Shown here piece by piece: positions 22,601 to 63,885 of a stretch of DNA of 64,000 nt. A program made the position numbers and the translations under genes. The stretch covers positions 682,001 through 746,000 of the forward strand of contig NC_087252.1 in assembly GCF_037042905.1 (NCBI RefSeq), read 5' to 3'. Below the pieces are notes generated by a model. It ran no database searches. It had not been told where the DNA came from and was given only the letters and a program-made list of their open reading frames with translations. The stretch's first letter is position 1, and each line of letters begins with the position of its first letter. Source of the stretch: Lytechinus pictus. Lineage: Eukaryota.

Positions 22601-22688
22601 ATACCACATTATGCTCATCATCAAAATGCAAGAAAGTGTTTGTGTTTGACTAAAAAAATTCACTTATGTTTCCTTCATTTTCAGCCAT
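19678..22688 (-). pseudogene. LINE ORF2 (APE endonuclease + reverse transcriptase), disrupted, copy 1
   Basis: ITETW, YRPP, GDFN, SDH and QFGF, GVPQGS, FADD motifs; TAG at codon 13, extra TAA at 22458-22460, T9 frameshift at 21718-21726. Confidence 0.93.
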
Positions 22689-23012
22689 TACATTGATAGG
22701 AATAATGTACAAAGTAATGTGCGACCATGCAGTCAACAAAACGTGATACACATTTCAAAATAGTTCTCTTCCTCATACAAGGTAAAACATTTACAACAGT
22801 TGACGTGCTCACAAAGATGGGAAAAAAGAAAGGAAAGGAAAGAAAGGATACAGCATAACATACTAAATATAGCATAGAAAATATAAAAATACTACCTATA
22901 CATCTATTCTGAGGTGAGAAAAATAAATGAAAACAAATGGTAAAAGAATTAGAATTATCGCCAAAGGGCCTAAAATAAGGTAACCCTACTCCACTGATGG
23001 AAAGGAGCTGCA

Positions 23013-30000: not shown

Positions 30001-30103
30001 ACTTGCAGTTCGAAGATACCACATTATGCTCATCATCAAAATGCAAGAAAGTGTTTGTGTTTGACTAAAAAAATTCACTTATGTTTCCTTCATTTTCAGC
30101 CAT
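27094..30103 (-). pseudogene. LINE ORF2, copy 2
   Basis: 304-aa APE ORF and 676-aa RT ORF split by a T8 tract (29134-29141); in-frame TAG at 30065-30067 after ATG at 30103. Confidence 0.93.
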
Positions 30104-30427
30104 TACATTGATAGGAATAATGTACAAAGTAATGTGCGACCATGCAGTCAACAAAACGTGATACACATTTCAAAATAGTTCTCTTCCTCATACAAGGTAA
30201 AACATTTACAACAGTTGACGTGCTCACAAAGATGGGAAAAAAGAAAGGAAAGGAAAGAAAGGATACAGCATAACATACTAAATATAGCATAGAAAATATA
30301 AAAATACTACCTATACATCTATTCTGAGGTGAGAAAAATAAATGAAAACAAATGGTAAAAGAATTAGAATTATCGCCAAAGGGCCTAAAATAAGGTAACC
30401 CTACTCCACTGATGGAAAGGAGCTGCA

Positions 30428-31153
30428 CTACTTTAAATTGTCAATGTCTCTAATGTCAGTTATAAGCTTTTTCTTGAGGCCACCAGCTGAGTCCTTTAGC
30501 CCCGCGTAGATGCGTCCATCCACGGCCCACACCTTTTCCACCTTCCCTGCGTGTCGGGCCGCATGATAGAGTTTTTGTCTTCGCTGTGTCAGGTCTTCGT
30601 TGAGATAAATCGACGATCCTTTCAAAGAAGGCCTCCCACGGACGAACTTGAACTTTGCGTTCTGAGACGCAAACTTGACAATGATGGGGCGTGAACCAGA
30701 TCTTTCGGCAGCCCAAGCAGCCTTGACAGGTCCAAGGCGGTGGAACCTGTCGATGTCAGATAGGGATATTTCCACCCCCATCCTCTTCGCAACATTTCCC
30801 ACCACCTCGTCGGTTGACTCTCCCTCCTTCTCCTCAATGCCGTAGATACGGATGTTCTTCCTTCGGGAGTACTGCTCCATATCGTCAGTCTTGACTTGAA
30901 GCGCCAGAATCGACTGCTGGGCGGCTTCCTCCCTCTCCCTCAGCTTCTCTATTTCAGCAGCTTGAGCATTCGCCTTCATCTCTAGCTCCAAGATTTTGGA
31001 CTCCTGCTCCTCAAGCCTTGCTGCAAGGCTAGAGATTACAGCCTCCTTCACCATTACCTGCAACAGCTGCTTAAAATCAGAATTGGATCCCAATTCTCCA
31101 ACAACACGGCGGGCAATTTCAGCAGTGTCCGATTTTGCTTGTTTGGGTGACAT
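30428..31153 (-). CDS. LINE ORF1 protein, copy 2
   Basis: Intact 241-aa ORF. Confidence 0.9.
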   Translation of the reverse strand: MSPKQAKSDTAEIARRVVGELGSNSDFKQLLQVMVKEAVISSLAARLEEQESKILELEMKANAQAAEIEKLREREEAAQQSILALQVKTDDMEQYSRRKNIRIYGIEEKEGESTDEVVGNVAKRMGVEISLSDIDRFHRLGPVKAAWAAERSGSRPIIVKFASQNAKFKFVRGRPSLKGSSIYLNEDLTQRRQKLYHAARHAGKVEKVWAVDGRIYAGLKDSAGGLKKKLITDIRDIDNLK

Positions 31154-37500: not shown

Positions 37501-37522
37501 TGTTTCCTTCATTTTCAGCCAT
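34513..37522 (-). pseudogene. LINE ORF2, copy 3
   Basis: Same TAG (37484-37486) and T8 frameshift (36553-36560) as copy 2. Confidence 0.93.
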
Positions 37523-37846
37523 TACATTGATAGGAATAATGTACAAAGTAATGTGCGACCATGCAGTCAACAAAACGTGATACACATTTCAAAATAGTTC
37601 TCTTCCTCATACAAGGTAAAACATTTACAACAGTTGACGTGCTCACAAAGATGGGAAAAAAGAAAGGAAAGGAAAGAAAGGATACAGCAAAACATACTAA
37701 ATATAGCATAGAAAATATAAAAATACTACCTATACATCTATTCTGAGGTGAGAAAAATAAATGAAAACAAATGGTAAAAGAATTAGAATTATCGCCAAAG
37801 GGCCTAAAATAAGGTAACCCTACTCCACTGATGGAAAGGAGCTGCA

Positions 37847-38564
37847 CTACTTTAAATTGTCAATGTCTCTAATGTCAGTTATAAGCTTTTTCTTGAGGCC
37901 ACCAGCTGAGTCCTTTAGCCCCGCGTAGATGCGTCCATCCACGGCCCACACCTTTTCCACCTTCCCTGCGTGTCGGGCCGCATGATAGAGTTTTTGTCTT
38001 CGCTGTGTCAGGTCTTCGTTGAGATAAATCGACGATCCTTTCAAAGAAGGCCTCCCACGGACGAACTTGAACTTTGCGTTCTGAGACGCAAACTTGACAA
38101 TGATGGGGCGTGAACCAGATCTTTCGGCAGCCCAAGCAGCCTTGACAGGTCCAAGGCGGTGGAACCTGTCGATGTCAGATAGGGATATTTCCACCCCCAT
38201 CCTCTTCGCAACATTTCCCACCACCTCGTCGGTTGACTCTCCCTCCTTCTCCTCAATGCCGTAGATACGGATGTTCTTCCTTCGGGAGTACTGCTCCATA
38301 TCGTCAGTCTTGACTTGAAGCGCCAGAATCGACTGCTGGGCGGCTTCCTCCCTCTCCCTCAGCTTCTCTATTTCAGCAGCTTGAGCATTCGCCTTCATCT
38401 CTAGCTCCAAGATTTTGGACTCCTGCTCCTCAAGCCTTGCTGCAAGGCTAGAGATCATTCACCATTACCTGCAACAGCTGCTTAATATCAGAATTGGATC
38501 CCAATTCTCCAACAACACGGCGGGCAATTTCAGCAGTGTCCGATTTTGCTTGTTTGGGTGACAT
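37847..38564 (-). pseudogene. LINE ORF1, copy 3, frameshifted
   Basis: Net 8-bp deletion near 38455 (gagatcattcacc versus gagattacagcctccttcacc). Confidence 0.85.
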
Positions 38565-44869: not shown

Positions 44870-46665
44870 TTGCGCCCCCGGTCGAACATGAATTTGCATG
44901 GAGCCCCCTAAGTTCAAGGTCAATTTGGCGCCCTCGGTCGAACATGAATTTGGCGTCATGTGAAATATCACTTTGCCCTCCCCCTTCTGAAACATGTATT
45001 TGTCGCTTTATGGTCAAACATCAAATTAGCGCTCCCCTAGTTCGAACATCAATTTGGCGCTCCGCTAGTTTGAACATCAATTCGGCGCTCCCCTAGTTCG
45101 AACATCAATTTTGCGCCCCTCCCAGTTCAAACATCAATTTGGCGCCCCCATCTAGTTCGAAAATTAATTCGCCCCCTCCTCCTTGTTCAAACATCAATTC
45201 GGCGCCCCATGGTTCGAACGTCATTTTGGCGCCGCCTAGTTCTAACATCAATTTGGCGCCCCCCTTGTTCGAACATCAATTTGGCGCCCCAAGTTCGAAT
45301 AGCAATTCGGCGCCCCCTGGTTCGAACATCAATTTGGCGCCCCTAGTTCGAACATTCAATCGGCGCCCCCCGATGTCGAACATAAATTTTGCGCCCCTAC
45401 GTCGAACATCAATTCGGTGCAACCCCCCCCCTACGTCGAACATCAATTTGGCGCCCCCAGTTCAAACATCATTTTAACATCCATTCGAACATCATTTTGG
45501 CGCCCTCCTAGATCGAATATCAATTCGGCGCCCCTACATGTAGGTCCAACATCAATTTGGCGCCCCAAGTTCGAATAGCAATTCGGCGCCCCCTAGTTCG
45601 AACATCAATTTGGCACCCCTAGTTCGAACATTCAATCGGCGCCCCCCGATGTCGAACATAAATTTTGCGCCCCTACGTCGAACATCAATTCGGCGCACCC
45701 CCCCCCCTACGTCGAACATCTATTTGGCCTCCCTAGGTCGAACATCAATTTGGCGCCCCCAGTTGGAACATCAAATTGGCGCCCCTAGTTCGAATATCAA
45801 TTCGGCGCCCCCTAGTTCAAACATCAATGTGGTGCCCCTAGTTCGAACATTAATTCGGCGCCCCCCCCCCTAGTTCGAGTATCAATTCGGCGCCCCTACA
45901 TGTAGGTCGATCATCAATTCGCCCCCCCCCCCCGTTCGACCATCAATTCGACCCCCAGTTTGAACATAATTTTGGCATCCCTTCGAACTCAATTTGGCTT
46001 CCCTAGTTCGAATATCATTTCGCCCCCCTAGCTCGAGTATCAATTTGGCGCCCCCTAGTTCGAACATCAATTCGGCGCCCCCTAGTTTGAGTATCAGTTT
46101 GGCGCCCCCCTAGCTCGAACATCGATTCGCCCCCCCTAGTTCGAGTATCAATTTGGCGCCCCCAGTTCCAACATCATTTTAACATTCCTTCGAACATCAT
46201 TTTGGCGCCCTCCTAGATCGCATATCAATTCGGCGCCCCTACATGTAGGTCCAACATCAATTTGGCGCCCCATAGTTCGAGTATCAATTTGGCGACCCCA
46301 ATTTTCAACATCAATTCTAAGCCCCCCTAGTTCGAGTATCAATTTGGCGCCCCCCTAGTTCGAACATCGATTCGGCCCCCTCCCCCCCCTAGTTCGAGTA
46401 TCAATCTGGCGCCCCCAGTTCAAACATCCTTTTAACATCCCTTCGAACATCATTTCGGCGCCCTCCTAGTTCGAATATCAATTCGGCGCCCCTACATGTA
46501 GGTCCAACATCAATTTGGCGCCCCTAGTTCGAATATCATTCCCCCCCCTAGCTCGAGTATCAATTTGGCGCCCCCTAGTTCCAACATCAATTTGGCCCCC
46601 AGTTCGAACATCATTTTGACATTCATTCGAACATCATTTCGGCGCCCTTTGGGTTCGAACATCAT
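44870..46665 (+). repeat. ~27-30-bp minisatellite (ggcgcccc-tagttcgaacatcaattt) with higher-order repeats
   Basis: Dozens of tandem units; blocks such as ~45275-45435 recur at ~45550-45720. Confidence 0.95.
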
Positions 46666-47536
46666 TTTCTTTCCTCCTCTTCCTCTGTTTTTCTTTTCGT
46701 CCTTCCCCCTCTTCCTCTCCCCTTTTCTTATTTTCTTTCCCCCCTTTCTCTCTCTTTTTTCTTCTCTTCTTTCTTCCCTCTTCCTCTTTCTCCTTTTTTC
46801 TCCTTTTCCTTTTCCCCTCTTCCTTTCTCTTTTCCCCCCTCTTCTTTCCCCTCTTCCTCTTTTTTCTCCCCCCTCCCCCTCCCTTTTCTTCTCTTCCTTC
46901 CCCCTCTTCCTCTTTTTTTCTCTTTCTTTCCCCTCTTTTTCTCCTTTTTTTCTTCTTTTCTTTCCCCTCTTCTTTTTTCTTCTTTTCTTTCCTTTCTCTT
47001 CTTCTTTTTCTTTCCTCCCTCCTTTTTTTCCTTTTCTTTCCCCTCTTCCTCTTTTTTCTTCCCCCTCCCTTTTCTTCTCTTCCTCTTTTTTCTCCTTTTC
47101 TTTCCTCTTTTTCCTCTCTCTCTTTTTCTTCTCTTCCTTTCCCCTCTTCCCCTCTCTCTCTTTTTTTCTCTTTTTCCTTTCCCTCTCTTTTTCCTTCTCT
47201 TTCCCCTTTTCCTCCCCTTCCTTCCCTTCCTTCCCCCTCTTCCCTTTTTCTTCTTTTCTTTCCCCCTTTCCTCTCTCTTTTTCTCCTCTTCTTCCGTCCC
47301 CCTCTTCCTCTCTCTTTTCCCCTCTTCTTTTCCCCTTTCTCTCTCTTCTCTTCTTTCCTTCTTCTTCCTCTTTTTTTTTTCTCCTTTTCTTTTCTCCTAT
47401 CTACTTTCCTCTTTTCTTTCCCCCCTTTTCCTCTCTCTTTTTTCTTCCCTGCTTCCCCTCTTCCTTTCTTCTTTTTCTTCTTTTTTCCCCCCTCTTCCCC
47501 TCTTTTTTCTCTTTCTTTCCCTCTCTTCTTTTTTTT
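46666..47536 (+). repeat. ~870-bp polypyrimidine (CT) tract
   Basis: Almost only C and T on the + strand. Confidence 0.97.
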
Positions 47537-48024
47537 AGCCGAAGGGGGGGGGGCAAGGCCCCCTCGGCCCCCCCCATGGATCCGCGCCTGTCACCACCCC
47601 CCCCCCCAAAAAAAAAAAAATAAATAAAAAAAAAAATAAAAAAAAATAAATAAAAAGTGGAACACGGAAGAGAACAAGAAGACAAAGAATAGAAGAAAAA
47701 GGATATATATTTGGAAAAAAATATGAAAAAATAAGAGAGAGGTGGATGACAGATAAGTCAAAGAAAAGGAAAAAAAGTGGGAAGATAAAGAGGAAATTAC
47801 CTTGTACATTATGTACTTATTTCGACTCATTCCAATCGTGTAAATATGTAATTATAATGATTTATTTCAATAAAACATACAAAAAAGAGGAGAGCAAATG
47901 ACATGTATAGGCTCAGTTAGAATAGAGGAACAAAAATTCCCTTTTTTTTCTTGGGGGGGGGGGGGCCGGAGGGCAAGCCCTTCCAGTCCTTTGGATCTCT
48001 TCTATATATATATATATATATATT

Positions 48025-48672
48025 TCAGGTGAATTTGACGCCCCCTAGGTCGAACATCAATTTGGCGCCCCCTAGGTCGAACAACATAATTTTGCGTACC
48101 TAGGTGAAACATCAACTTGACGACCCTCTGTTTAAGGTCAATTTGGCGCCCCCTAGATCCAACATCAATTTGGTGCCCCCCTCCAAGGTCGAACATGAAT
48201 TTGGCGCCCCTTAGGTGGAACATAAATTTGGCGCCCCCATGTTTAAGGTCAGTTTGGCGCCCCCTAGATCCAACATCAATTTGGTGCCCCCCCCCCTCCA
48301 AGGTCGAAAATCAATTTGGCGCCCCTTAGGTGGAACATCAATTTGACGCCCCCATGTTTAAGGTCAGTTTAGCACGCCCCCCTTACAGGACAATTTGGCG
48401 CCCCTAAGTTTAAGGTCAATTTGGCGTCCCCCATGTCAAACATCAATTTGGCGCCCCCAAGTTTAAGGTCTGTTTGGTGCCCCCGTTACATGTTAGTTTG
48501 ACGCCCCCAGTGGAATATCAATTTGGCGCCCCCCCCCCCCGTTGAATATCATTTCGGTGCCCACTAGGTAGAACATCAATTTGGCGCCCTGATGATCGAA
48601 CATCACTTTGGCACCCCCTCCCAAGTTTAAGGTCAGTTGTCGCCCCCTCATTACAGCTCAATTTGGCACCCC
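48025..48672 (+). repeat. Second, diverged GGCGCC minisatellite array followed by a short CT tract
   Basis: Units aacatcaatttggcgcccc and tttaaggtcagtttggcgcc. Confidence 0.9.
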
Positions 48673-51343: not shown

Positions 51344-51359
51344 ATGGAAGATTATTCAC
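51344..51359 (+). CDS. Probable first coding segment (MEDYS; exon 51284-51359) of the malectin-like/FBA-like gene
   Basis: Acceptor ttttccaaacAG, upstream in-frame TAG, ACGATGG start context, donor GTAAGT in phase 1 matching the next exon. Confidence 0.5.
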
Positions 51360-51771
51360 GTAAGTTTACCTTTCCAGATATATAAATTATACATGTATGT
51401 GTTCTAGAATGATTTCATTAGCTTTTATCTTGTTGTGTTTATTTTGCTACAATATTTCATTGCTACAACCTGTTACGACTCTTTTTCTTGAACCTTGAAC
51501 CTTGAAGAGTAATCCCTTTCAGCAGCTTCAAAGCTATCCCGGGATGAAAACATTCTATGTATCAGTGCGAGGTGCCATGGTGAGGTAGTTTGAAATTTCA
51601 CTTATAAACAGTAAAGGTGAGTGTGCACCGTGCAAGTAGCCTGGAATACAGTATGAAATGTCACAATAAAAAGACTAATTTGAAGGAAATTTTGAGCCCC
51701 CAGCTCACGCATGTCACCCACCACTGACACACTACTAATCAACTTTGTTCAACGTTTTATTTCAATTTCAG

Positions 51772-53121
51772 AATCACCACCAACAATCTCCTTGGAGGAG
51801 TTTAATGATGATGTCTTTCCAAGAGAGAAAAATCTGCTTTACAACGTGAACGCTGGTCATGGTGGTGCTTCAGCTATCCTGCTTCACACCCGGCAACGTC
51901 AGTCGAACGCCCAGAGTCAGATGAGTCTAGTTCAATCCGGTTTCAACTCGAATACATTCAACACCAAGCTGATTGTGACGTCAAGGTTAGGTATACCTGC
52001 AGCCAGGGACAACGGACGCTTTGCTGCCTCAATCGCACGTGACCTTCAAACAAATCACGACGGGAATTTGATCATGAAGATTAGATATGGTAGACACGAT
52101 GTAACTTTGTTTTCCAACCAGGCTATCTTTACCCGTGGAGGGCGCTTTCCACAAAGAGAATCTTCACCAGAAGGTAACCTTGATGTAGGCCTCCATGAGC
52201 TTGGTTTTGTCCACCTTACTGATACCGTTGAGTACACTGTGTCCTTTCTTGTGGGATGTAGCACGTCTAGATCTGATGAAAGCACACCCGTCGCCTGCTG
52301 CTATATGGTAGAGGTCCAGAGGAATGGGGATTGTTGGAAGCTTGATGCTGTTCCAGCTGGGAAATGTGGACCGAATGAGATGAAAAACAACTGGAAATTC
52401 GACATTAACCAGGATGGTTGTGTCAAGATCGAAGGCCCTCCAGATAGCCACTTTGTTTTCCTGTGCAACCGAAGTTACGCTGTGGATACATCCGACACCT
52501 CGCCTTGTGGCAAGGTATTTTTCACTCAAACCTACAACGGCGAGCACAGCACGACTCTTGTACCCAAGATCCGAACTCACTATGGCCGAGCAATGTTCTT
52601 ACTCTGCTCCAGGTCTAATCCTGACACCGACCTTATCACATCGGCTTTGTACTTTGTGGCACCAATGGTGAACAAAGTGGGTGTGTACTACATCGCAGAA
52701 AGCACTGATGATCCGTCACTGTCGACCCCAGCCCTTTGGTTGGTGAGTAAGAAGATAGGGAAGTTGGCGGTGAGGCTGAAACCGGACCTGACAGGCCCTT
52801 GCCGGTACGCTTTCTTCTCAAATGCACCGGAGGACCTTGAAGATGTCGAAAGTAGGTGCCTTCAGAGCGACTGCATCGCTACAGGAGTTGACACCCCGCT
52901 GCGTGGTCATCTCTCAATCAATGATGGCTGCCTGAACGTCTGGACCGATAGAAGAGTTGACATCAAGATTGAGTCCGGCAACCATACTGCCGTGCTCGTA
53001 CCGGAATCCGAGTTGGAGGAAGAGTCCGGGCGGTTTACCTTCCAAAAAGACGTTTCAAATGAGACCAAAGAGGGGAAGGGCGTGTACGTCTTTAGAGCCA
53101 GTGTTACTTTGAAAAACAAAG
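51772..53121 (+). CDS. Large 1350-nt coding exon with ~3 internal beta-rich repeats of unknown family
   Basis: Lies within the 479-aa ORF; branch-like tactaat, ttcaatttcAG acceptor, G|GTAAGC donor; phase 1-1. Confidence 0.9.
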
Positions 53122-53732
53122 GTAAGCGGAAGTATCGAAAATTGCATTGAGGGATAAAATATATGCTTGGGATGACCTGGTGGGTGTTAAGAAAATAATA
53201 GGTTCGTATGTTACGAACGTCTGGTGATAGTCACTTGTGCAACATATTGATGAATGATAAATAGAATATAGCATCCAGAAAGATATAACTAGTTGTTCGT
53301 GAAGTCATTCGTGACTTTATACGAACAGCTTTGTGAAGCACCCCACAGTTACTGATTCGTATTTATTGTAAATCATTTGGTAAATCGAAACATCACTCTC
53401 ATAACGTAGTGACCCGTTTGACAAACAAACCGACAAAGTGAAAAATGTATATTGTGATGTACTGCCTCTTTATTGTTGAATGTTTTGATTGTGGGATTGC
53501 CTATGTTGATATGTGCCCCGTACCACAACGATTAGCGACTTATAGCGAAACGAAACGACTAATCAAGATCATCGTTGCATACGCATCTTGCTGAGTAGAT
53601 TGACTACGAACCAATCAGATTTTTTTATTTCAAGTGATCGATTGATCGATAACCTTTGTGTTACACGGTTCATGTTATCCTGTGTATTATTCGGAAATGA
53701 ATAAGTAAAATTCGTTCTCACCCATTCCCCAG

Positions 53733-53900
53733 AGAAAAAAGATGTGACTCTCGAGTTAGAGGGTTCACCCTGTGGGGTCATGACGCAACTACCTGGTGTC
53801 CAGTTCGCAATCAACTTTGGTGGCCCAGCCTACCAGGATGTAAACGGCGCAGTCTTCTGTGATGGGCGATCTGCTTTACCATCCATCTGCTCAGATCATG
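53733..53900 (+). CDS. Coding exon; start of malectin-like domain
   Basis: AG/GT, phase 1-1; EKKDVTLELEGSPCGVMTQLPGVQFAINFGGPAYQDVNGAVFCDGRSALPSICSDH. Confidence 0.85.
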
Positions 53901-55567
53901 GTGAGGAACTTTACTAATTCTGATATTGGTGATTTAATATTGATTGCTTCATGATGTTGACATGTGTCCGTTTTCACCCTGGCGAAGGCCAAAAAAGTAA
54001 TAATAGCTATAAAGCGACCTGTAAATAGTGTCACGGCCCTATATTGGGGTCCGGAAAGAAAAGAGAGAGGTAGACCTATGAACGGATTCTCAGTACAAAA
54101 AACCCTGACACTTTGAGAACATTTTATAAAAGCATTTAATTAGTAAGTTACTTCTCGTTCCAATATCAGTCTACAACAGAGTGGATATAATCAATTTCCA
54201 TCTTCCTTAAAACGCCGAGGTTTGAGAAAATCAAATACATTTGAGAGTTTGAATATTTAAATCTTAGAGAAAAAATATTCACAGACTAAATTACACACCC
54301 ACACCCAATCACACACACATATACACATGAAACCTGATTATCAGATCGCGGTAGGATGGGGCCCCTGTTTTTGAAACAAGGTTCCAACTCTTGCCGGTGA
54401 TCGTGCTGTCGATATTACTGCGACAAATCGATGAATTTCTGTGTTGCGACGTCCCCGAATGACGACCTTGAGCTGTCCTTGATGATCCCTTAAAAGTAAT
54501 GGCTGCATGGACGTACCCCCGACTCCAGACCCGACGATAGAACATACGTTTATCAAAAACTTGGTAAATATTGAAGACTTCATACAAAATAAGTGAGATA
54601 AATTTGGTGATTAAAATAGCTTGAAGATACAATTCAGGAAACATGAAAATTGCGACTGGCAGGAAACTCAGACGATTACATGTCTTAACTCAACGAAAGC
54701 AAAACACGTAATGCCTGATACTAGCTTGTACACCAACTAATACACTTTGCCCGACTTATCAACTTTGGCGTGGCACCTACGTATACATCGTTTATACATT
54801 CATACAGAAATTACGAGCCATGTACGCTCGGTGAACTAATTTGCATAGTTACCATGGCGACGAGCGCTAAGAAAAAAAATCAGCTGCAATTCACCACGAA
54901 GCTAGTTTGCCATACATTTAAATTGTCCTGATCATTGATCAGCATTTTTAATCAAAAGTAAATATCAAGGAATCTTTTCCTCGGTTAAATTTTGGGAGGC
55001 TAAAGTAAGACAAATACAAATGACAATTTAGGAACTCGACTTGTGACAAATAGTCTACACACATCGCTGGTTAGATATGAAACTTTACTGCGAGCTAGAG
55101 TGGGAGAGACAGTCTACGTTCGTCTTTATGAGATCTAGATCTAGTCAATCTATCACGTTATTAATAAGCATAGATGTAGAAAATATTCATAAAAGAATAA
55201 AAGAAAAACATTGACATACCAACAAAGTTGACGGAATGTCACCTTCCATGACAGCGAGTGAACAAATTACAAGCAATTCTGAAGTTGTCTTAGGCAAATG
55301 AATCGAGCATAGAGAGTTGTTGCGCTCAGCTCAGCTAGCTTGATTTGCACATGTTGTGTGTGGATAGCGGTGGTGCAGACTTATGCATCGCGCGCTCGAC
55401 CTTGCATCCAGGAGGTTCGTTGCTATTTAATCGAGAAAATCATTCGCCATGGTGTAAAACGGAATCGCGCATACAGGACAAAGTCTTACCTGACGCACTG
55501 GCGCTGCTCAAAAAAAAAAGTGAAAGAAAGAAAAGGCGCCGCTTAAAAAAATAAAAATAAAGGAAAT

Positions 55568-55887
55568 AATTCAATTCAATTCAATTCAATTTATTTACAC
55601 TCTCAATAAAAACATGAACAACATACGTCAGGTACATAAGTAAAACATTGTGACAACATACAAAAAACATATTTATGAGAATGAGGGGCCAACAAAAAAG
55701 AGCAGATAGCCTTATTGAGCGTTGACCCAACAACTATAAGACAAAATCAATAAATATTACAAAAAAAAAGATAACATAAATGAAAACATATATTAACACA
55801 TACATTCAAAATATATAGCGTAGTTATACAAGCAAATTAAGAATACAAACTTAAAAGATGTAATTTATAATAACGTTTGAAAGAATT
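55568..55887 (-). mobile_element. Short 3' fragment of a CR1/L2-group LINE
   Basis: (AATTC)n tail next to tttatt; stem-loop-like 3' UTR motif similar in layout to the other LINE 3' ends. Confidence 0.6.
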
Positions 55888-56029
55888 TAAAAGAAATGGC
55901 GCCGCTTAAAAAAAATTATACACTGATATAATATTAGCAACAGTAAAGTAAAGACTATCCCCAGCAAAGCACACTCATATCATCTTCCTTATCTTTTCTT
56001 TTAACTACCCTTTTCCCAACAACTTCGCC

Positions 56030-56735
56030 GGTTAAAAATAATCAGCAGTGCGCTGCCTGCATATAACTGGCGCCAATCAAGAATAACCAGCGCCACCTAA
56101 ATCTAAATCGGCGCCGGACAAGAATAATCAGCGCCATTTGGTTATAAATCGGCGCCGGTAAAGAAAAATCGGCGCTGCCTGAGTTCTTAACCGGCGCCGA
56201 TCAAGGATAATCAGCGCCACCTAAATCTAAATCGGGGCCGGACAAGAATAATCAGCGCCATCTGGTTATAAATCGGCGCAGCCAGAGTCTTAACCGGCGC
56301 CGATCAAGAATAATCAGCTCCACCCTAAATCTAAATCGGCGCCGGGCAAGAATAATCAGCATCACCTGGTTATAAATCGGCGCCAGTCAAGATTAATCAG
56401 CGCCCCAGGTTATAAAATCGGCGCCGGTAAAGAAAAATCGGCGCTGCCTGAGTCTTAACCGGCGCCGATCAAGAATAATCAGCTCCACCTAAATCTAAAT
56501 CGGCGCCGGACAAGAATAATCGGCGCCATCTGGTTATAAATCGGCGCTGCCAGAGTCATAACCGGCGCCGATCAAGAATAACCAGTGCCACCTAAATTTA
56601 AATCGGCGCCGGTCAAGAATAATCAGCGTCCCCTGGTTCCAATAAATAGGCGCCGGTAGAATAATGAAGAAGGGCCTATCGCAAACCAAATCTAGTTCGA
56701 CGCCGGTCAAGAATGATCAGCGGCACCTGGTTATA
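56030..56735 (+). repeat. ~20-bp-subunit GGCGCC minisatellite with ~120-bp higher-order period
   Basis: Alternating aatcggcgccgg / aagaataatcagcgcc units. Confidence 0.92.
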
Positions 56736-57457
56736 CATTTTATTGTTGAATGGTCATAACGAATAACAAAGCTTATCGCATGCCCTTACAGAGTGGACTG
56801 GGGCGGGGCAGTTGCCCACAGATGTCATGAAATCTGACCAGTGAAATCATGCGTGGGAGATTCATTACATAAGTTCCCAAAAGTACCTTTCCAAAAGTCA
56901 CAAGATTGACCTATTTGCAGAATTTCGACACATTCTAACAAATTCTAGTGGTTTATTTTTTCTGGGTATATTTGGTTGCTAACCTCGAACCCCGATTCTC
57001 TCATACATTTTCCTTCCGTAGTGTCGCACCATCATGAGACTCTCCTTTGTATAGACAATTATATGCAACTAATATCACAACTAATTCTGAAATATTAATC
57101 TCAGTTGATGAGTATCAAATTACATCCCAGAAAAGGAGTACTAAGATTATGAAGATGATTCGATATTTTAGTCCAAAACTTTGCTAAAACCCGTTGCTAA
57201 TACCGGGAGTGTATAATTACGCAACCAGACGTATATTCGTTAGACCTTAAACCACTAAATATCATTTTCAATGTATAAATACAGTTCGTCAATACCTTTG
57301 TTTTAACGTTTAAATGTTTACGCGACAAAATTGATTTATTTTTTAATATTATTCATCTGATCACTCAGGAAGAAGTTAAAAACAAAGATAACGATACCTG
57401 TAAAACCGGAGAACTATTTCCTAAGCTCTGTCTTGAAGGATCTCTTTTTTAATTCAG

Positions 57458-57487
57458 GTCATAAGCATTATATCCAGTTTCATCAAA
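57458..57487 (+). CDS. Possible 30-nt micro-exon (GHKHYIQFHQ)
   Basis: ttttttaattcAG acceptor, GTAATT donor, phase 1-1; the frame is kept with or without it. Confidence 0.4.
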
Positions 57488-58402
57488 GTAATTAGATAAG
57501 AATTACTCATCATTACAAATTGCATTATATTTAGTGAAAAGCATCACAATATATATATATAAATACCAAATGCTGTATATAGGCCTTTACATCATGTACA
57601 TGAAAATTGAATGATTATATATAAACCTGGATTGGTGATGTATTCCAAATGATTCATGATGTAGTATCATCGTATATATATAGTTAAAAAAACTTGTATC
57701 TCAATTAATATACAAAAGTATTGGCCTCATCGCAATAAAAGGGTTAGTACACGAGATTTTGAGATCGCACATAACATGCATAATTTGTGCTACTTTTTGC
57801 TTGTTTCTTTCTTTAATAAGTTCTTCAATCTCTCTATATATGTTTTAGAAAGATTATATGTTTAATTTGATGTATTTTTTCTGTTATAATGAGATATGTT
57901 TGAGTGGACTTCAGGGAATGGTCGTACGCAGCAAGGGGGAGGGGGGGGGGGCAAATTCCCGATCAGCTGTTGTGAAAAGACATTTTTTTCCTTAACATTT
58001 CATGAAAACAACTATGAAAAATGTGCAAATGTGAGATGTGCACCAAGTACTTTTATTACACTTGTAAAAAAAAAAATCGCCCCATTGAGCAGCTCGGTCC
58101 GTTTACTCTATCGCTTTTATTTTCATTTTTTCAAAAATATGTTCGAGTCTTGCCCCCCGGAAATATTATCTGCGTGTTGTCATGCAAAATGGCATGACTG
58201 GAAATCCTACATTTTGAAAAGAGCATTTTAAACATAATTCTAAGTGAAATTCAATCAACAACACTCCTTTTAATTCAATAATTGTGATTGATGGTTAAAC
58301 TCTCATTAATGGTAACTACCATGGACACCTCCAATAAGAATCACGATTACTTTGAATGTATCATTAAAAGCAATGTAACGACCCATCTTATTGGTTACAC
58401 AG

Positions 58403-58536
58403 ATCGATACTACAACGGCTGTCACATTGACCCGTTGAGGAATTATCCCCAAGTAGTTGGAAGCACCAACGATGGCTCATTGTATACTACCTTCATAGGA
58501 AATCGACCAAGACAAGATGATGCCTTGAATTTCAGA
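58403..58536 (+). CDS. Coding exon, malectin-like domain
   Basis: RYYNGCHIDPLRNYPQVVGSTNDGSLYTTFIGNRPRQDDALNFR; phase 1-0. Confidence 0.85.
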
Positions 58537-59064
58537 GTATGTATAATTGATTCACTAAAAATGTTCGTCTAGGGTCTGTTTCATAAAGAGTTACAATTAT
58601 GGAAACGTTGATTGTGATTGAATGCTTAGCAATGTTACCGTGGTAGTTGGTTTATAGGATTTCTTTAAAGTAGTTGGTTTATATGATTTCTTTAAAGTAG
58701 TTGGTTTATATGATTTCTTCATTGAGTAAACTTTTTTGATATGCACTGCATTTACGATTTAACTTTGTTCCTGTTGTTGTTGCTACTTAACCAAGATTGT
58801 AAATCGGTCAGAATAAGGCAGTTAACATGTAGGCCTATACAGTTTTCATAATTGAAACATTCCTTACTATATATGTATATGTTTGTATATTGTATATCAT
58901 ACCATTGAAGTGAAAATTCACAATATAGAAAAATAAGAGGAGATTTTATGTTGTAGCATTTTAGAACAATTTCTGTCTTTGTATTTCTGACGGGGAAAAA
59001 CGTATAGGGCATTAGCAAATTATACACACGTTGATTTTCCTAAATGTAATTTTATCATTGATAG

Positions 59065-59166
59065 ATCCCGGTGCCCACAGGAAGATATGTCCTCACACTG
59101 TTCACAATGTCCTCGGGTTTAGATGACGTCACTGCTGTGGTGAATAGAGACGATTTATCAACTCAG
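59065..59166 (+). CDS. Coding exon, malectin-like domain
   Basis: IPVPTGRYVLTLFTMSSGLDDVTAVVNRDDLSTQ; phase 0-0; GTAAGT donor. Confidence 0.88.
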
Positions 59167-59667
59167 GTAAGTTTTATATCCAAACCCTCTGAACACGAAC
59201 GAAGCTTTGATTGAATAAACGTAATACAAAACAAGCCCAATACTGTACACTTAATCAAAATCTGATTTAAAAAAAATGTGAACGTATGCTTATTTTCATA
59301 ACGGGACCGCACCACGGACGGCAATGCAGGATACAATGTCAAATATTCCTTATTATCTAGTTTTTATCTGAAATATAAAATATTTCCTCTCCCCCTCCAA
59401 TGATTAAAGTTGGATTGAATCCTTGGAAGGTATGAATAAATTGTTGAGTTGCAGGGCAGTCAAAACTGGGTGCGGAATAGTTCATCAGAGGAAGAGTAAA
59501 ATTCATATGAATTATATTCAGACAAGCCCATATCATAAAGATGTTTAGCTACCCCGAATATTCGAATGAAAACAATTAAATTTGAACGTAACCGAGTTTT
59601 GTTGAAAAGTCTTTGTGTATCATTTGTATATTTACAATTTGTTATGAAATCAAATTAGATTCAACAG

Positions 59668-59770
59668 CAATTGCATAGTCAGACAGAAACTATCCCAGAA
59701 TGCACTGCGAAGAAAGCATCACTTCCTGTTACTGTGTCTGATGGTGCTCTTGACATCTCCCTGAAATGTG
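59668..59770 (+). CDS. Coding exon, malectin-like domain
   Basis: QLHSQTETIPECTAKKASLPVTVSDGALDISLKC; phase 0-1; GTAAGT donor. Confidence 0.85.
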
Positions 59771-60250
59771 GTAAGTCGCTTAATTTAAATCCTAGAGCAA
59801 TCATTAATCTCGAACAATATCAGTAAACTAGAAAATGCCAGATCGTAAATTACTTCATCCTCTCCGTAATCTGGTAATCATGATTTTTTTTCCTCTGTTT
59901 TTGTGCTGATTTTTCACAGCTATGTAACAAAGTGAAATTGCTTTTCATAAAATGCAATGCATGAAAAACTAACCCAACCAAGAAAAAAGAGAAAACACCC
60001 ATCCACAAACCCACACACACTCATCCATACACACCTACCCACCTCAACATAAGAACAACAACAGCAGCAATCCCTCTCTCTCACACACACGCCCCTGAAA
60101 TTCTTCCATAGCATCTGAAAATGTACAAGCAATATTTGATTTGTTTGAATTATTTTCTTAATTGAATTTGGCGTTAATGTCCAGTTGATTAGGCAAGAGT
60201 AAACATGTATATTCCAAATATATATATCATATATTTTACATTGTGTACAG

Positions 60251-60345
60251 ATAGAGGCATTCAACTTTCTGCTCTTCTTGTTCAGAGTGAAGATACAGAC
60301 ATTGAAATTTTGTCTAACGAATTATCATCAGGTCAAAAACAAGAG
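60251..60345 (+). CDS. Coding exon, end of malectin-like domain and linker
   Basis: DRGIQLSALLVQSEDTDIEILSNELSSGQKQE; phase 1-0. Confidence 0.85.
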
Positions 60346-60475
60346 GTAAGCTATTAAACAGAGCTTTTAAAATGATAATATCTTCTTTATATTTGACTTG
60401 TGTGAATTTTCAGTAGCTGGTTTATTTGTTCCAATCGAATGTAAGTTGAATTTTATATTACACAAAGCTATATTA

Positions 60476-60824
60476 TATAACGTGGAGAAGGTTTACGGTT
60501 CACCATGTGTAATATGAAGAAGGGAAGGAAATATAGGCAGAAAGATTGAAATTGAAAGACGAGATAGGATGAAAAGAGGAAATTAGAAGTATTATTTCTT
60601 GAAAGTGAGTGAAGTCCTGAAAAGGACTGTAAACCAGATGAGATGAGCTGAATATGGCTTGAGTTGCGATGGTGTGAGTAGTAGCAGGTTGAAGTGAAGA
60701 GAGGTTACTCGACGTTTCGGGCAGGTTGACTGTCCGTCTTCAGGAGTGAAGACTCCTTTCTGCCCACATTTCCTTCCCTTCTTCACATTACACATGTTGA
60801 ACCGTAAACCTTCTCTACGTTATA
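60476..60824. mobile_element. Penelope-like terminal-repeat remnant with ~70-bp inverted ends
   Basis: 60476-60545 is the reverse complement of ~60756-60824; contains a hammerhead motif. Confidence 0.7.
60707..60747 (-). ncRNA. Minimal type I hammerhead ribozyme motif
   Basis: Minus strand: ACUC-CUGAAGA-C-GGACAG-UCAAC-CUGCC-C-GAAAC-GUC-GAGU; both core boxes, stems I and II, palindromic ACGU stem III. Confidence 0.7.
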
Positions 60825-61182
60825 AACTCCACCATGCAAACCTACTATATTATATATACAACCTTGGCACGGTGGCCCCTTGCACTTTCCAGCAAATCCT
60901 TCAAAATAACGAAGCTTTAGCTTATCTTTCAACTATCGCAGCACTGCGATACATCTGTTATTTTTTATGGAAATGGACTTCTTTCGGTCTTAGTGTCGAC
61001 TTGCATTAGACGAATATCTTAATTTTGCACATCATTTTCCATGCCACGTTGGTAATTAAGGATTTATTCTCCTTAACTATTCATACTAACATACTAGTCA
61101 AACTAGTCAAGTCAAACTCTACCTCTTTCTCTGTGTCTGACTCTCTCTCTCTTTCTATCTCTCTCTCTATATATATTTGCAG

Positions 61183-61275
61183 ATTGGTGATGATCTTGCT
61201 CCTCTTGACCGTCACATTGCTGGATATGACATCAGAAACCTTGCTTGGTCTGGTGATATCCTTAGGATGAGGAAG
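61183..61275 (+). CDS. Coding exon (linker)
   Basis: IGDDLAPLDRHIAGYDIRNLAWSGDILRMRK; phase 0-0. Confidence 0.85.
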
Positions 61276-61915
61276 GTATGTCAGGCAATGCAGGGCAACA
61301 ACAACGACATCTCTGCTAAATTTACCACACATTTTTTTTTCATACATCAATTCCGGAAAGGCTGTTAAGTCTGCAAAAAATACATGTGTTACTGTATCAT
61401 TTATTGGTTCGAATAATATATGTATTGTTCAACTCTGATGTTGTGATCATATTTACATATTTATTTCCCCCCGTTCGCAGTTTTTTTTTAATTTAATTTC
61501 CAATCCATCTGACTCCTCTTTTCACTCCCCCTTTCATTTTCCTTCCAAATTTCGATTTTTAATGTTTTGTTAAAAGAAAGTTTAAACTGTAATTATTTTC
61601 GTAAGAGGGACTTGTATGGGGGCACATAGCCACATGCCTCGGTGTGGAATTTTACTTTCGCACCTGGATAACTGCACCCCCCCCCCATTTTTTTTCCAAA
61701 ATTGTGTGCACAAAGGTAAAAATGACCATCTGGTCATGATTATTTTTTTTGCTTGGTCAGCCCCCACTCCCACTTTCCAAACTTTTCCGCTGCCCCTTCC
61801 GACCATTTCAATTGCTATTATTTTGTTCTCATCCCCAGGAATATACTTCGGAATGTGATTCTACGCAATGGCCTCCTGACCATTTCAATTGCTATTATTT
61901 TTTTCTCATCATCAG

Positions 61916-61982
61916 GAATATACTTCGGAATGTGATTCTACGCAATGGCAGTCGCAGTTCGGTGGTGACGGTGTGGAGAAAA
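61916..61982 (+). CDS. Coding exon, start of FBA-like domain
   Basis: EYTSECDSTQWQSQFGGDGVEK; phase 0-1. Confidence 0.8.
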
Positions 61983-62298
61983 GTAAGGACTATATTTGTG
62001 CTTCACTGCAACCGAGTCAGAATAATAGTAAATGTTATATTTTATCTGAATAATGTACATCTATTCAAGACTATATATTCATACTTGGAGTTTTCCTATT
62101 GAAAATAACTTTGAATCAATTTACTTATGAATTAGAACATAAATGATTACAAGGTTATTCCAGCGGTATGGTCATTATGATTATTATTATTTGCTTTTGC
62201 TGTTCACACAAACGAAGAGAAAAGCTGATCATTCTGTGAAAGTATATATCTTTAAGTCAATTACTTGCCTTTTTCTCATTCCTACCATTGCGTCACAG

Positions 62299-62396
62299 GA
62301 CTGGTCTTAACTGGTGAAAATGGTGTTTTTGAGTATCACATGAATCTCGAGGATTCCTTCGACGTGCGTTGCCTTGATAATGCTCCACCAGTTCAG
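62299..62396 (+). CDS. Coding exon, FBA-like domain
   Basis: RLVLTGENGVFEYHMNLEDSFDVRCLDNAPPVQ; phase 1-0. Confidence 0.85.
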
Positions 62397-62607
62397 GTAA
62401 GATTAAGTTCTTCCTAGAAACACTGTAAAGTCTGAACTGAATTATCGAAGAAAGCATACTAACATTAAATTATGTTTTTTTTCAAGGTTATCAAGTTATT
62501 AAATGTGCAGGAACCAATGGACCGCCTGAAATGGTAGCCACCTACAGATGTCTAGATCACCAACGATAAAACATTTCGCATTGGTATACATTTCATGTAG
62601 TCGTTAA

Positions 62608-63023
62608 GGCCATAGCACACCTAACGATTGCTTTGCGACCCGATTTTTAAATAAAAGATAGTAGAAATTGATGCTAATATTGAAACATGAAGTATCTTAC
62701 TGTATAATGTTCTAAATCATCGTAACGATATCTATTCCCAAATCGGTGACTATGCTATCATCCTTATTAGAATAAAAGCGAATTTAATATATAGTCGAAA
62801 GGACGTCATAGTAATCGTACGACTGGCTACGATTTGAAACTAAGTTGGCTTTTACACCAAAATAAAGGCTTGCAATCATCCAAAATTGTTATTAGGGTTC
62901 TTTCCGGTAATTTGAACCTCAAATAAAAAGATACTTTTCATTCACATTTTCATGAAATGAGCCAAATGTGATTTGGTCCAAAATTGGATCGATGACCAGT
63001 CAGTCGTAAGGTGTGCGGTGGCC
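62608..63023. mobile_element. Intronic MITE with TTAA flanks
   Basis: ttaa-ggccatagcacacc ... ggtgtgcggtggcc-ttaa. Confidence 0.8.
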
Positions 63024-63138
63024 TTAATAGTCATGTACATGTAGTTGACATCTTTCAGGTTAAATATTAGACCATGCTAAGTTCTATATGCAACATTTTC
63101 CTTTGAAAGAGTTCCTTTCATGATTTATGCTTTCACAG

Positions 63139-63337
63139 TTCTCTTTATCACTGCGATCTTCCACTACCTCTGGATCTACATTCCAAATAACACTCACTCT
63201 AGAAAGATCTGATGGCACAGTGGTCCAAACGAAATGCACGAATGGTACACTAGAAAGGTCTGATGCTTGGTCAAGGGTCACACTTACCGTTGAGGAATAC
63301 GGTGCAGGAGCAAGGAGCGTAAGGATAACGACAGAAG
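63139..63337 (+). CDS. Coding exon, FBA-like domain
   Basis: FSLSLRSSTTSGSTFQITLTLERSDG...DAWSRVTLTVEEYGAGARSVRITTE; phase 0-1. Confidence 0.88.
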
Positions 63338-63690
63338 GTACCGGTATACGATGTTTCTTATCAATCACTTATGATTTACCAAAGAAGTATTATGACTCTT
63401 TTTAAAGACTGAACGAAACAAAGGGGAAAGGACTGGGTAATGGGTCTTTTACAGTTATAACTGATATTCTAACGTAAGCCCAAGCCAGTTCTAGCATTAT
63501 GAAACATGCGAGTAACTCTTTACAAGTACAATTTATTTGGGTTGCATTGTGGAATCTTCGAGTTAAGCTCGTTTCACTTACCGGTACTTGACTTTAAAGC
63601 AGTTAGGTTCCACTTCTTTGAAATATCCTGGGATCACCAAATTGTAGACTTCTACCAATGAAAGACAATGACTTTGATTATCAGTTGCAG

Positions 63691-63885
63691 GTCGAGGGAT
63701 TGAGGTCTCTGCAGCCAGTTTGAGGATGAAGTGTCGTCGGCCACATAGGACTGGTCTCAAGAATACTCTATGTGATGTCAAGATTATCAAGGACACCAAG
63801 AAGCTAGTCACCCTGATACGGGGCTTGGTTCAGAAGTACGGCCTCCCTACCTGTCCAATGTCAACAGATCGACCCGGAAGTGAAA
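63691..63885 (+). CDS. Coding exon, end of FBA-like domain; gene probably continues beyond the window
   Basis: GRGIEVSAASLRMKCRRPHRTGLKNTLCDVKIIKDTKKLVTLIRGLVQKYGLPTCPMSTDRPGSE; phase 1-1 with GTAATT donor. Confidence 0.8.

Follow-up and report, generated by a model that had tools for sequence, protein, structure and literature searches.

The window, a 64,000-nucleotide stretch of Lytechinus pictus DNA, carries on its forward strand the 5′ half of a 30-exon gene whose product is rather likely to be a STAND switch acting through a TIR-like effector, in which an array of beta-sandwich domains would serve for ligand binding or targeting. The initial annotation had proposed that a dozen or so exons join into a single open frame of ~880 aa running past the window; 12 such exons were found, AG/GT-bounded and with matching phases, encoding aa 1-878, and the end coordinate given there, 63885, is the end of the last in-window exon. 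The peptides that it quoted all fall within these exons, and the ORF track does hold only pieces of the gene. Extension in the 3′ direction revealed 18 further exons (exons 13-30) in the next 12.5 kb, so that the whole gene comprises 30 GT-AG exons and encodes 1885 aa, with a single terminal stop that lies 12.5 kb outside the window. Over its full length, the spliced product shows 94.2% identity to an 1885-aa predicted protein of Lytechinus variegatus, and the gene model is far beyond chance.

Coding exon 1 (51344..51359; all exons and features are on the + strand) consists of the ATG, five codons and one base, followed by a GTAAGT donor. Its joint to exon 2 (51359 to 51772) is seen in spliced contigs from runs X1 and X2, and the protein N-terminus agrees with those of orthologues. 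Exon 2 (51772..53121, aa 6-455) encodes the entire N-terminal beta-rich region, and its downstream joint (53121/53733) is also found in spliced contigs. The malectin-like domain begins in exon 3 (53733..53900, aa 456-511), continues through exon 4 (58403..58536, aa 512-556), exon 5 (59065..59166, aa 557-590), for which raw RNA junction reads are present, and exon 6 (59659..59770, aa 591-627), and ends in exon 7 (60251..60345, aa 628-659), which also encodes linker. Exon 8 (61183..61275, aa 660-690) spans linker and the start of the FBA-like domain, which extends through exon 9 (61916..61982, aa 691-712) and exon 10 (62299..62396, aa 713-745), has its core in exon 11 (63139..63337, aa 746-811), and places its final strand in exon 12 (63685..63885, aa 812-878), together with further linker.

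The junction check suggested in the initial annotation showed that 10 of the 11 in-window introns are skipped at the modelled GT..AG sites in contigs of X1 and X2, which are RNA by guess only; the eleventh intron, 60345/61183, is not among the contig rows listed. These spliced contigs have 0 mismatches, and their span from exon 2 to exon 12 (2619 nt) equals the model's exon sum. The guessed status of X1 and X2, along with very low coverage of the gene in runs recorded as RNA, could be taken to favor a pseudogene or retrocopy, or a model stitched together artefactually from chance ORFs. That reading is close to refuted: the 1885-codon frame is intact across 30 GT-AG exons, the orthologue is 94% identical with the functional cores most conserved, and the raw RNA-seq runs X19 and X20 hold 1-2 junction reads at each of four introns. 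The gene is real and transcribed.

The encoded protein is ordered as three beta repeats, an Ig-like module, a malectin-like domain, an FBA-like domain, a linker of ~100 aa, DUF4062, NACHT, a helical domain and TPR. The 'novel repeats' of the initial annotation were recovered by profile self-comparison as three tandem beta modules of ~117 aa: repeat A (51786..52148, exon-2 protein residues 5-125), repeat B (52149..52511, residues 126-246) and repeat C (52512..52829, residues 247-352). Alignment with hhalign gave a probability of 93.3% (E 4e-8) for A against B and 97.5% (E 2.5e-11) for B against C, and 98.1% when the whole repeat region was compared with itself shifted by one unit. No Pfam family matched exon 2 at E ≤ 1. 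The AlphaFold model of the exon-2 region is all-beta (pLDDT 79, pTM 0.76), and the best structural match of repeat C, a phage baseplate protein (Z 8.3, rmsd 2.5 Å, 100 aa), does not rise above the noise level stated for the tool, and the same holds for its matches to phage tailspike and tail-fibre proteins (Z 8.0 and 7.4). As modelled, the region consists of three tandem repeats without a family match or a clear fold match. They are followed by a small Ig/FN3-like beta sandwich (52887..53120, exon-2 protein residues 372-449) that matches many Ig-like and FN3 domains in a wide VIA search at Z 5.5-6.8, a generic and weak resemblance.

The malectin-like domain spans aa ~473-647. Positions 2-81 of Pfam Malectin (PF11721) align with aa 479-568 (residues 24-113 of the urchin orthologue piece used as query), from exon 3 into exons 4-5, with a score for that piece of 14.1 bits (E 0.046) that does not reach the gathering score of 23 bits. 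A Capitella relative that is alignable over its full length scores 34.4 bits on the same model, above the cutoff. A phmmer search of 1.84 billion proteins returned P0014 (E 1.1e-8), P0017 (3e-5), P0018 (5e-5) and P0019 (1.3e-4), multi-malectin bacterial proteins that themselves score 48-444 bits on Pfam Malectin. Structural models here and for the FBA-like domain were built from the L. variegatus orthologue, which is 89-92% identical to the window gene in the modelled domains. Model confidence for the malectin half is moderate by pLDDT, with residues 61-92 below 50. This half aligns with human malectin (9ikp_A) with Z 10.2 (rmsd 3.9 Å, 148 of 184 aa, 19% identity), close to the scores of other carbohydrate-binding-module folds. 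The malectin-like assignment of the initial annotation is upheld by these matches, and the bacterial sequence matches and, more tentatively, the human fold match are what the urchin domain has in common with malectin/CBM57-type domains. Malectin is a protein of the ER lumen, whereas the urchin domain is below the Pfam cutoff and resides in a cytosolic-type protein without a signal peptide. The spliced protein has no hydrophobic segment at its N-terminus, as the initial annotation had noted in reporting no signal peptide, and across its 1885 aa there is neither a signal peptide nor a membrane span.

The FBA-like domain (aa ~674-828) follows a similar pattern, in that both lectin Pfam models are sub-cutoff on urchin sequence. 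The gathering score of Pfam FBA (PF04300; 32.4 bits) is reached neither by the window's exon 11 ORF (13.2 bits, E 0.079) nor by urchin orthologues, which give 14.5-18.8 bits or zero match, whereas relatives that can be aligned across the whole region score 76.9-103.1 bits; homology to FBA is therefore transitive rather than direct. The gene's relatives match the FBXO2 sugar-binding domain at E 2e-23. The best Foldseek matches of the FBA-like model, at E 2e-9, are 1umh (E 2.1e-9, probability 1.0, target TM 0.62), 1umi and 2rj2, and by VIA the model superposes on the FBXO2 sugar-binding domain 2rj2 at Z 16.2 (rmsd 2.4 Å, 151 aa), with the next family at Z 12.7. The FBA-like assignment proposed in the initial annotation is borne out, and the domain shares the beta-sandwich fold of FBXO2/Fbs1, FBXO6 and FBXO44 (Z 14.2-16.2). 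The urchin protein differs from these in having no F-box and in the fusion partner of the domain, a STAND ATPase instead of a ubiquitin-ligase adaptor. The absence of an F-box had also been noted earlier, and no F-box family was found at E ≤ 0.1 in five orthologues or at E ≤ 10 on the lectin piece.

Sugar binding itself is a separate matter. Phe177, Tyr279 and Trp280 of Fbs1 are described as contacting chitobiose (PMC4603797). All three positions are lost in 4/4 aligned echinoid orthologues, whose beta9-beta10 loop is also shortened by a 7-residue deletion, and this renders FBA-type glycan binding, which the initial annotation had proposed, doubtful for the echinoid copy. Outside the echinoids, the Tyr279 position is Y, F or H in all eight rows and Trp280 is kept in all (five lineages and P0008); the Phe177 position is listed as Phe in six of these rows (Patiria, P0008, there given as Y, Capitella and three Mytilus rows) and is His in Anneissia and Branchiostoma. 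It is unlikely, on balance, that the L. pictus protein is a cytosolic dual lectin whose malectin-like and FBA-like domains bind glycans and sense exposed sugars for immunity. Such a function would suit the support for both folds, the retention of Fbs1-type motifs in conservative relatives (the Y-W of the beta9-beta10 loop among them), the role of FBA proteins as readers of N-glycans in the cytosol (PMC4603797) and the constraint on the lectin-like region among urchins, where the window gene is 66-70% identical to S. purpuratus. Against it stand the lost contacts and shortened loop of the echinoid orthologues, and FBXO44, which keeps the Fbs1 sugar-contact residues yet does not bind sugar (PMC4603797).

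The downstream effector domain that the initial annotation had guessed at is encoded 3′ of the window, where orthologues exceed Pfam cutoffs for DUF4062 (50.7 against 24.7 bits), NACHT (35.8 against 26.7 bits) and TPR_12 (68.6 against 30.1 bits). In the gene model, a Walker A motif, GESGSGKS, lies at aa 1189 and a Walker B-like hhhhD motif at aa 1276. Exon 13 as read from the L. pictus genome matches the solved TIR-like domain of human TEP1 (11gz_A) at E 3.6e-9, and an offset reading from this alignment places Leu at the TEP1 R908 position in urchins. The SVTQLE motif is invariant in the family; exons 14 and 15 gave no alignment to TEP1 on which its catalytic Glu (E1008) could be placed. According to a recent preprint, DUF4062 is a TIR-like NADase, and TEP1 is active, with activity that rises with concentration (bioRxiv 10.64898/2026.05.01.722283). 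As in the urchin gene, the DUF4062-NACHT-WD40 proteins TEP1, NWD1 and NWD2 have a TIR-like DUF4062 directly before NACHT, and they are likely the model for mechanism; the urchin protein differs in having TPR in place of WD40, a lectin-like N-terminal extension, and Leu at the R908 position. With canonical NLRs, including the expanded sea-urchin NLR set, it shares a NACHT switch, a repeat arm and N-terminal accessory domains, but it has TPR rather than LRR (no LRR family was found at E ≤ 0.1 in five orthologues) and no DEATH/CARD/PYD, and its family is small rather than expanded.

Over the C-terminal 950 aa, the domain order is that of NPHP3-type proteins, and automatic annotation gives the orthologue this name. 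NPHP3 is not known to carry an N-terminal array like that of the urchin protein, whose first ~880 aa hold the repeats and the malectin-like and FBA-like domains. A scaffold without an immune role, comparable to NPHP3, in which NACHT/TPR would organise a structure of the cell (cilia or membranes, for example) with the beta domains as protein-protein adaptors and DUF4062 catalytically silent, has about the same low probability as the dual lectin. The four NPHP3-specific Pfam models do match weakly, the family is old and has few members, and its NACHT is highly conserved. Conservative relatives from 5/6 non-echinoid lineages start with MG(C)xxxS, which resembles the N-terminus of NPHP3, a myristoylated protein. 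In the preprint, only TEP1 was active, and purified NWD1, NWD2 and NPHP3, the human proteins nearest in architecture, were without NADase activity in vitro (bioRxiv 10.64898/2026.05.01.722283). These points are opposed by scores for the NPHP3-specific models that all fall below cutoff in urchin orthologues (TPR_NPHP3 39.7-45.5 against 100; NPHP3_hel ≤ 18.9 against 27.9; NPHP3_N ≤ 16 against 24.8; NPHP3 ≤ 19.1 against 33), by the missing lectin-like array, and, with respect to a silent DUF4062, by how well this domain is kept (52-58% identity across phyla).

The taxonomic survey found relatives in starfish, crinoid, amphioxus, annelid and mussel. The gene had been described as hidden; it is not, since predicted orthologues already exist for L. 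variegatus, S. purpuratus and Diadema, although the gene itself is unstudied. Five orthologous proteins are 1539-1885 aa in length and 44-93% identical, and a further pair of copies, both more conservative, is found on a different contig. The bilaterian family is small and unstudied, and the window gene is one of its paralogues, echinoid and divergent; it no longer has the MG(C)xxxS N-terminus, and one Arg is gone from the DUF4062 pocket. The low number of gene copies, together with NACHT identities of 57-64% between phyla, makes a conserved cell-biological role look likelier than that of an arms-race receptor.

For the STAND switch with a TIR-like effector, a mechanism can be modelled on its relatives TEP1, NWD1/2, NPHP3 and APAF-1-type STAND proteins. 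The switch would be held shut by the TPR arm until a ligand frees it; NACHT would then oligomerise with nucleotide and gather the TIR-like DUF4062 domains, which may cleave NAD+ in the manner of TEP1 and bacterial Swarozyc proteins. The N-terminal beta-sandwich array of ~830 aa would act as the ligand-binding or targeting module. In conservative family members the ligand may be a cytosol-exposed glycan. With the Fbs1-type contacts, the MG(C)xxxS start and the DUF4062-pocket Arg lost, the ligand of the window gene is probably not the canonical N-glycan core.

A more specific proposal, which we regard as improbable, is that the family, comprising the window gene, its two conservative paralogues and the starfish, crinoid, amphioxus, annelid and mussel genes, forms a STAND class lipid-anchored by way of the MG(C)xxxS start, in which the malectin and FBA pair reads glycans on the cytosolic side, released from ruptured endomembranes or presented by invading microbes, and signals through oligomerisation of NACHT to a TIR-like NADase. 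If true, it would represent a glycan-triggered, NAD+-depleting immune switch and a class of cytosolic sensor not previously described in animals, ancestral to bilaterians and absent from vertebrate matches, and the window gene would then be an echinoid branch that neofunctionalised towards a different ligand.

The multi-exon gene proposed in the initial annotation is confirmed, and its transcript and domain order are established, from three N-terminal beta repeats and an Ig-like module through malectin-like and FBA-like domains to a DUF4062 (TIR-like), NACHT and TPR tail. The window (G000:C8:682001-746000) is drawn from an 812-Mb, 368-contig assembly. Read from stop to stop, the ORFs between 50000 and 64000 comprise a single long piece of 484 aa among numerous short fragments, and together they contain every peptide quoted in the annotation. 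In the databases the large ORF is closest to a protein of Lytechinus variegatus (93% identity), with proteins of Strongylocentrotus purpuratus and Diadema next, which makes the source a sea urchin near Lytechinus; the gene was not hidden, as predicted proteins for all three urchins were already in the databases. The contig was extended 20 kb past the window and searched by tblastn with the 1885-aa L. variegatus orthologue (P0001), yielding 29 collinear matches that span 51768 to 76547. The start codon lies at 51344, in exact agreement with the annotated start, and 16 coding bases precede a GTAAGT donor. The gene model has 30 coding exons, all bounded by AG/GT and read in a single frame with one terminal stop, and the modelled protein is 94.2% identical to P0001. 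Twelve exons, coding for residues 1-878, lie in the window, the last of them ending at the annotated end coordinate of 63885; the expectation that the frame runs on past the window is borne out by the 3′ extension of the contig, which carries the exons up to number 30 and brings the total to 1885 aa.

Spliced contigs and junction reads span most of the modelled in-window introns. Ten of the 11 in-window introns are skipped at the modelled sites by mismatch-free spliced contigs from sequencing runs X1 and X2 (one X1 contig measures 5626 nt); the eleventh is absent from the alignment rows shown, and the distance between exons 2 and 12 on the contig equals the 2619 nt of the model. Runs X1 and X2 are RNA by guess only, and X19 and X20 are RNA on record. 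In the latter two, four introns are each crossed by one or two junction reads whose first mate maps to the minus strand; depth on the exons is very low, and among the runs listed as carrying exon 2 there is none on record as RNA. Contig and read depth is very high, and loose ends and odd joints are numerous, at 55340-57943 (intron 3), 60114-60981 (intron 7) and 62284-63151 (intron 10); the signal there comes from repeats or mobile elements that are transcribed from other places in the genome and do not belong to the mRNA of this gene. A 41-bp tandem array occupies 56069-56638.

Other repeats occur within and around the gene. A tandem duplication of 77 bp (1.9 copies, 95% alike) at 61801-61949 repeats the final bases of intron 8 together with the opening ~34 bases of exon 9. 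A further possible acceptor thus lies 77 bp upstream of the one used by the spliced contigs. Past the stop codon by ~5.7 kb, in the downstream sequence (L008:8292-8444), is a second exon-27-like copy that is 94% identical to orthologue residues 1656-1706; it may represent an isolated exon duplication or mark where a further gene of the family starts or ends. On the minus strand of the window, three near-identical tandem copies of an element were recognized by their ORF content at 19678-23765, 27094-31180 and 34513-38458, each with three long ORFs of 683-687, 281-310 and 203-250 aa. The largest of these reads like a reverse transcriptase with a FADD motif, and the element looks like a non-LTR retrotransposon array with ~7.4 kb spacing. 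Just upstream of the gene sits a block of satellite arrays with a 26-27-bp unit at 45012-46647 (58 copies) and 48023-48562 (15 copies), separated by ~0.9 kb of CT-rich low-complexity DNA at 46667-47536; the satellite and CT-rich DNA account for the strand asymmetry at 46-48 kb, where GC skew is -0.51 and AT skew -0.39.

The C-terminal half was assigned by Pfam profile searches of five orthologues (E<=0.1), which placed DUF4062 at residues 932-1029 of P0001 (50.7 bits), NACHT at 1185-1351 (35.8 bits) and TPR_12 in the same protein (68.6 bits). Four NPHP3-specific models match P0001 below threshold, and at this cutoff the five orthologues showed no match to LRR, F-box or death-fold families or to any family of signal type. 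The gene model contains a GESGSGKS motif and a Walker B-like motif, and exon 13 of the window genome matches the solved structure of the TIR-like domain of human TEP1 (11gz_A) with an E value of 3.6e-9. For the region of the TEP1 catalytic glutamate, exon 15 (26 aa) gave no PDB match and exon 14 no TEP1 match. Two named arginines in the TEP1 alignment are consistent with a chain offset of 893; given this offset, the position of TEP1 R908 is read as leucine in this gene. The equivalent position, located by motif, is Leu or Thr in the echinoid orthologues, and Arg in other relatives and in two paralogues from another contig (the C2 copies). A 2026 preprint (10.64898/2026.05.01.722283) describes DUF4062 as a TIR-like NADase and assigns its bacterial members a role in defence against phages; it reports that human TEP1 is active, the more so at higher concentration, and that purified NWD1, NWD2 and NPHP3 are inactive. 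This in vitro inactivity favors the main rival to an enzymatic role, namely that the protein is a non-catalytic scaffold of the NPHP3 kind, as does the fact that the family is small and slowly evolving.

Both of the glycan-binding-type domains named in the initial annotation find support in homology and in a predicted model. For both, the query was the corresponding piece of 412 aa from the L. variegatus orthologue, whose two domains are 89-92% identical to those of the window protein. The only Pfam match of this piece alone is Malectin, at E 0.046, and of eight single ORF pieces submitted to Pfam six lacked any family, the rest giving noise and FBA at E 0.079. A phmmer search of PDB sequences with the piece returned no related structure, its single match, an aspartokinase, being attributable to chance (E 0.3). 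A word-index homologue search with the lectin region returned four proteins, all from urchins, and other phyla came into reach only when 1.84 billion representative proteins were searched exhaustively with phmmer. The 17 proteins so obtained are the S. purpuratus orthologue, six near-full-length relatives, four short fragments and six bacterial-type matches, four of which are multi-malectin proteins (48-444 bits). The six near-full-length relatives, from a starfish, a crinoid, an amphioxus, an annelid, a mussel and one unnamed source, share 26-30% identity over nearly the whole piece; all score 77-103 bits with Pfam FBA at the homologous position, Pfam Malectin reaches 34.4 bits in the annelid protein, and the full-length ones among them end in the same DUF4062-NACHT-TPR tail as this gene.

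An AlphaFold model of the piece, built from a 12-row alignment, has an overall pLDDT of 68, with 80-93 in the FBA half and lower values in the malectin half. The best Foldseek matches are the sugar-binding domains of Fbs1/FBXO2 (E 2e-9), and a second structural aligner matched the predicted FBA-like fold (piece residues 219-373) to FBXO2 with a Z of 16.2 (rmsd 2.4 A over 151 aa), the next family scoring 12.7. The predicted malectin-like fold (residues 18-192) matched human malectin with a Z of 10.2 (rmsd 3.9 A over 148 aa, 19% identity). Sequence and model together support the view that the urchin malectin-like and FBA-like domains are divergent homologues that fall below Pfam's own cutoffs.

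Glycan binding, which the annotation had also attributed to the FBA-like domain, did not hold up as well. Phe177, Tyr279 and Trp280 of Fbs1 are described as essential for binding the GlcNAc-GlcNAc core (PMC4603797), and these positions were placed by way of the alignment of the annelid relative with the FBXO2 sugar-binding domain (E 2e-23) and the family alignment. In all eight non-echinoid rows (five named lineages and one unnamed protein) Trp280 is kept and Tyr, Phe or His occupies the Tyr279 position; at the Phe177 position, five of these rows carry Phe, two carry His and one carries Tyr. The four echinoid orthologues all have a 7-residue deletion of the Tyr279/Trp280 loop and lack an aromatic residue at the Phe177 position. 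Because of these losses, and because FBXO44 is reported to retain the sugar-contact residues yet not to bind sugar (PMC4603797), the FBA-like domain of this gene is doubtful as a glycan binder.

The repeats, termed novel in the initial annotation, remain so by the searches made here: three tandem units are seen, with no Pfam family in the N-terminal 455 aa and no solved fold that stands out. The N-terminal model, for which exon 2 of the window itself was folded from a 13-row alignment, is confidently all-beta (pLDDT 79, pTM 0.76). Profile self-comparison delimits three tandem repeats of ~117 aa each, with probabilities of 93% for A versus B, 97.5% for B versus C and 98% for the whole region shifted by one unit, and a small Ig/FN3-like sandwich directly follows. 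Foldseek returned only tandem laminin-G/jelly-roll-like multi-domain matches (probability <=0.38, TM ~0.1), the best match of a wide structural search was a phage baseplate protein at the tool's stated noise level (Z 8.3), followed by phage tailspike and tail-fibre proteins (Z 8.0 and 7.4), and a search of the ESM Atlas yielded no usable match; the repeats are therefore given no fold name.

The two C2 paralogues, at G000:C2:59748639-59767500 and G000:C2:60468385-60489700 (~0.72 Mb apart), have the same architecture and share the N-terminal repeats, malectin start, DUF4062 and NACHT with the window gene. Both retain canonical FBA hallmark motifs and an SSTFRDF motif that is altered in the urchin orthologues of the window gene; their YW-loop exon was not found by a regular-expression search. 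Proteins of other phyla are 44-51% identical to the C2 copies versus 37-41% to the window gene, and the starfish, amphioxus and mussel proteins are nearer to the former. A tree was built from 12 rows over the 631 model positions for which both C2 copies have sequence; P0005, a fragment from Capitella and two redundant rows from Mytilus were excluded. Window-type sequences of echinoids, five rows in all, form one clade (100/100), whose sister comprises starfish, crinoid and both C2 copies (93/95). From these clades and the identity pattern, the window gene is placed as a divergent paralogue older than the Diadema-Lytechinus split. Cross-phyla identity is 19-31% in the beta domains, 52-58% in DUF4062 and 57-64% in NACHT.

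The relatives differ also at their N-termini, as five of six non-echinoid lineages (P0006, P0008, P0009, P0010, P0031/P0037) begin with MG(C)xxxS, a start that neither the window gene nor any of its four echinoid orthologues has. This we take to be an N-myristoylation pattern, with possible palmitoylation at Cys3, in which case these relatives would be cytosolic proteins placed on a membrane. In mussel databases (Mytilus P0013, P0029, P0030, P0032-P0036) the gene often appears as two entries, an N-terminal protein of 1117 aa and a C-terminal one of 693-904 aa. They meet at residue ~1096 of the complete model (1981 aa), so that annotation has probably cut the gene in two midway through DUF4062.

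The gene is placed among the DUF4062-NACHT-TPR STAND proteins; its lectin-type N-terminal array is undescribed and its repeat is new. No study of it was found: in the library searched, no paper joins 'FBA domain' with NACHT, or 'F-box associated' with NACHT and TPR. Architecture figures S1D and 1E of the DUF4062 preprint could show the combination. The two papers containing malectin, NACHT and TPR together concern unrelated subjects, judging by titles and the beginnings of abstracts. LOC576310 was not found in the literature, the automatic name DDB_G0287407 was seen once, as a synteny label (PMC11890989), and in sponge and ctenophore surveys DUF4062 turns up only in figure legends.

By analogy with TEP1, APAF-1-type STAND proteins and the preprint model, the TPR arm would keep NACHT closed until a ligand opens it, and nucleotide-dependent oligomerization of NACHT would then cluster the TIR-like domains, which may cleave NAD(P)+. 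For the long beta-sandwich array, the most plausible role is that of a module for ligand binding or targeting. A cytosol-exposed glycan is an attractive putative ligand for the conservative family members, and in the window (echinoid) copy the ligand has probably changed.

Were the function ordinary scaffolding, this would be merely another uncharacterized STAND protein. DUF4062-NACHT proteins were tied to TIR-like NAD+ hydrolysis very recently (10.64898/2026.05.01.722283), and here two lectin-type domains, one with the fold of the cytosolic N-glycan reader FBXO2, precede the DUF4062-NACHT module. A single genome thus offers a comparison of conservative copies that have FBA hallmark motifs with a divergent copy that lacks the sugar-contact residues, and the lectin-type array provides a concrete, testable idea of the input signal for animal DUF4062-NACHT proteins.
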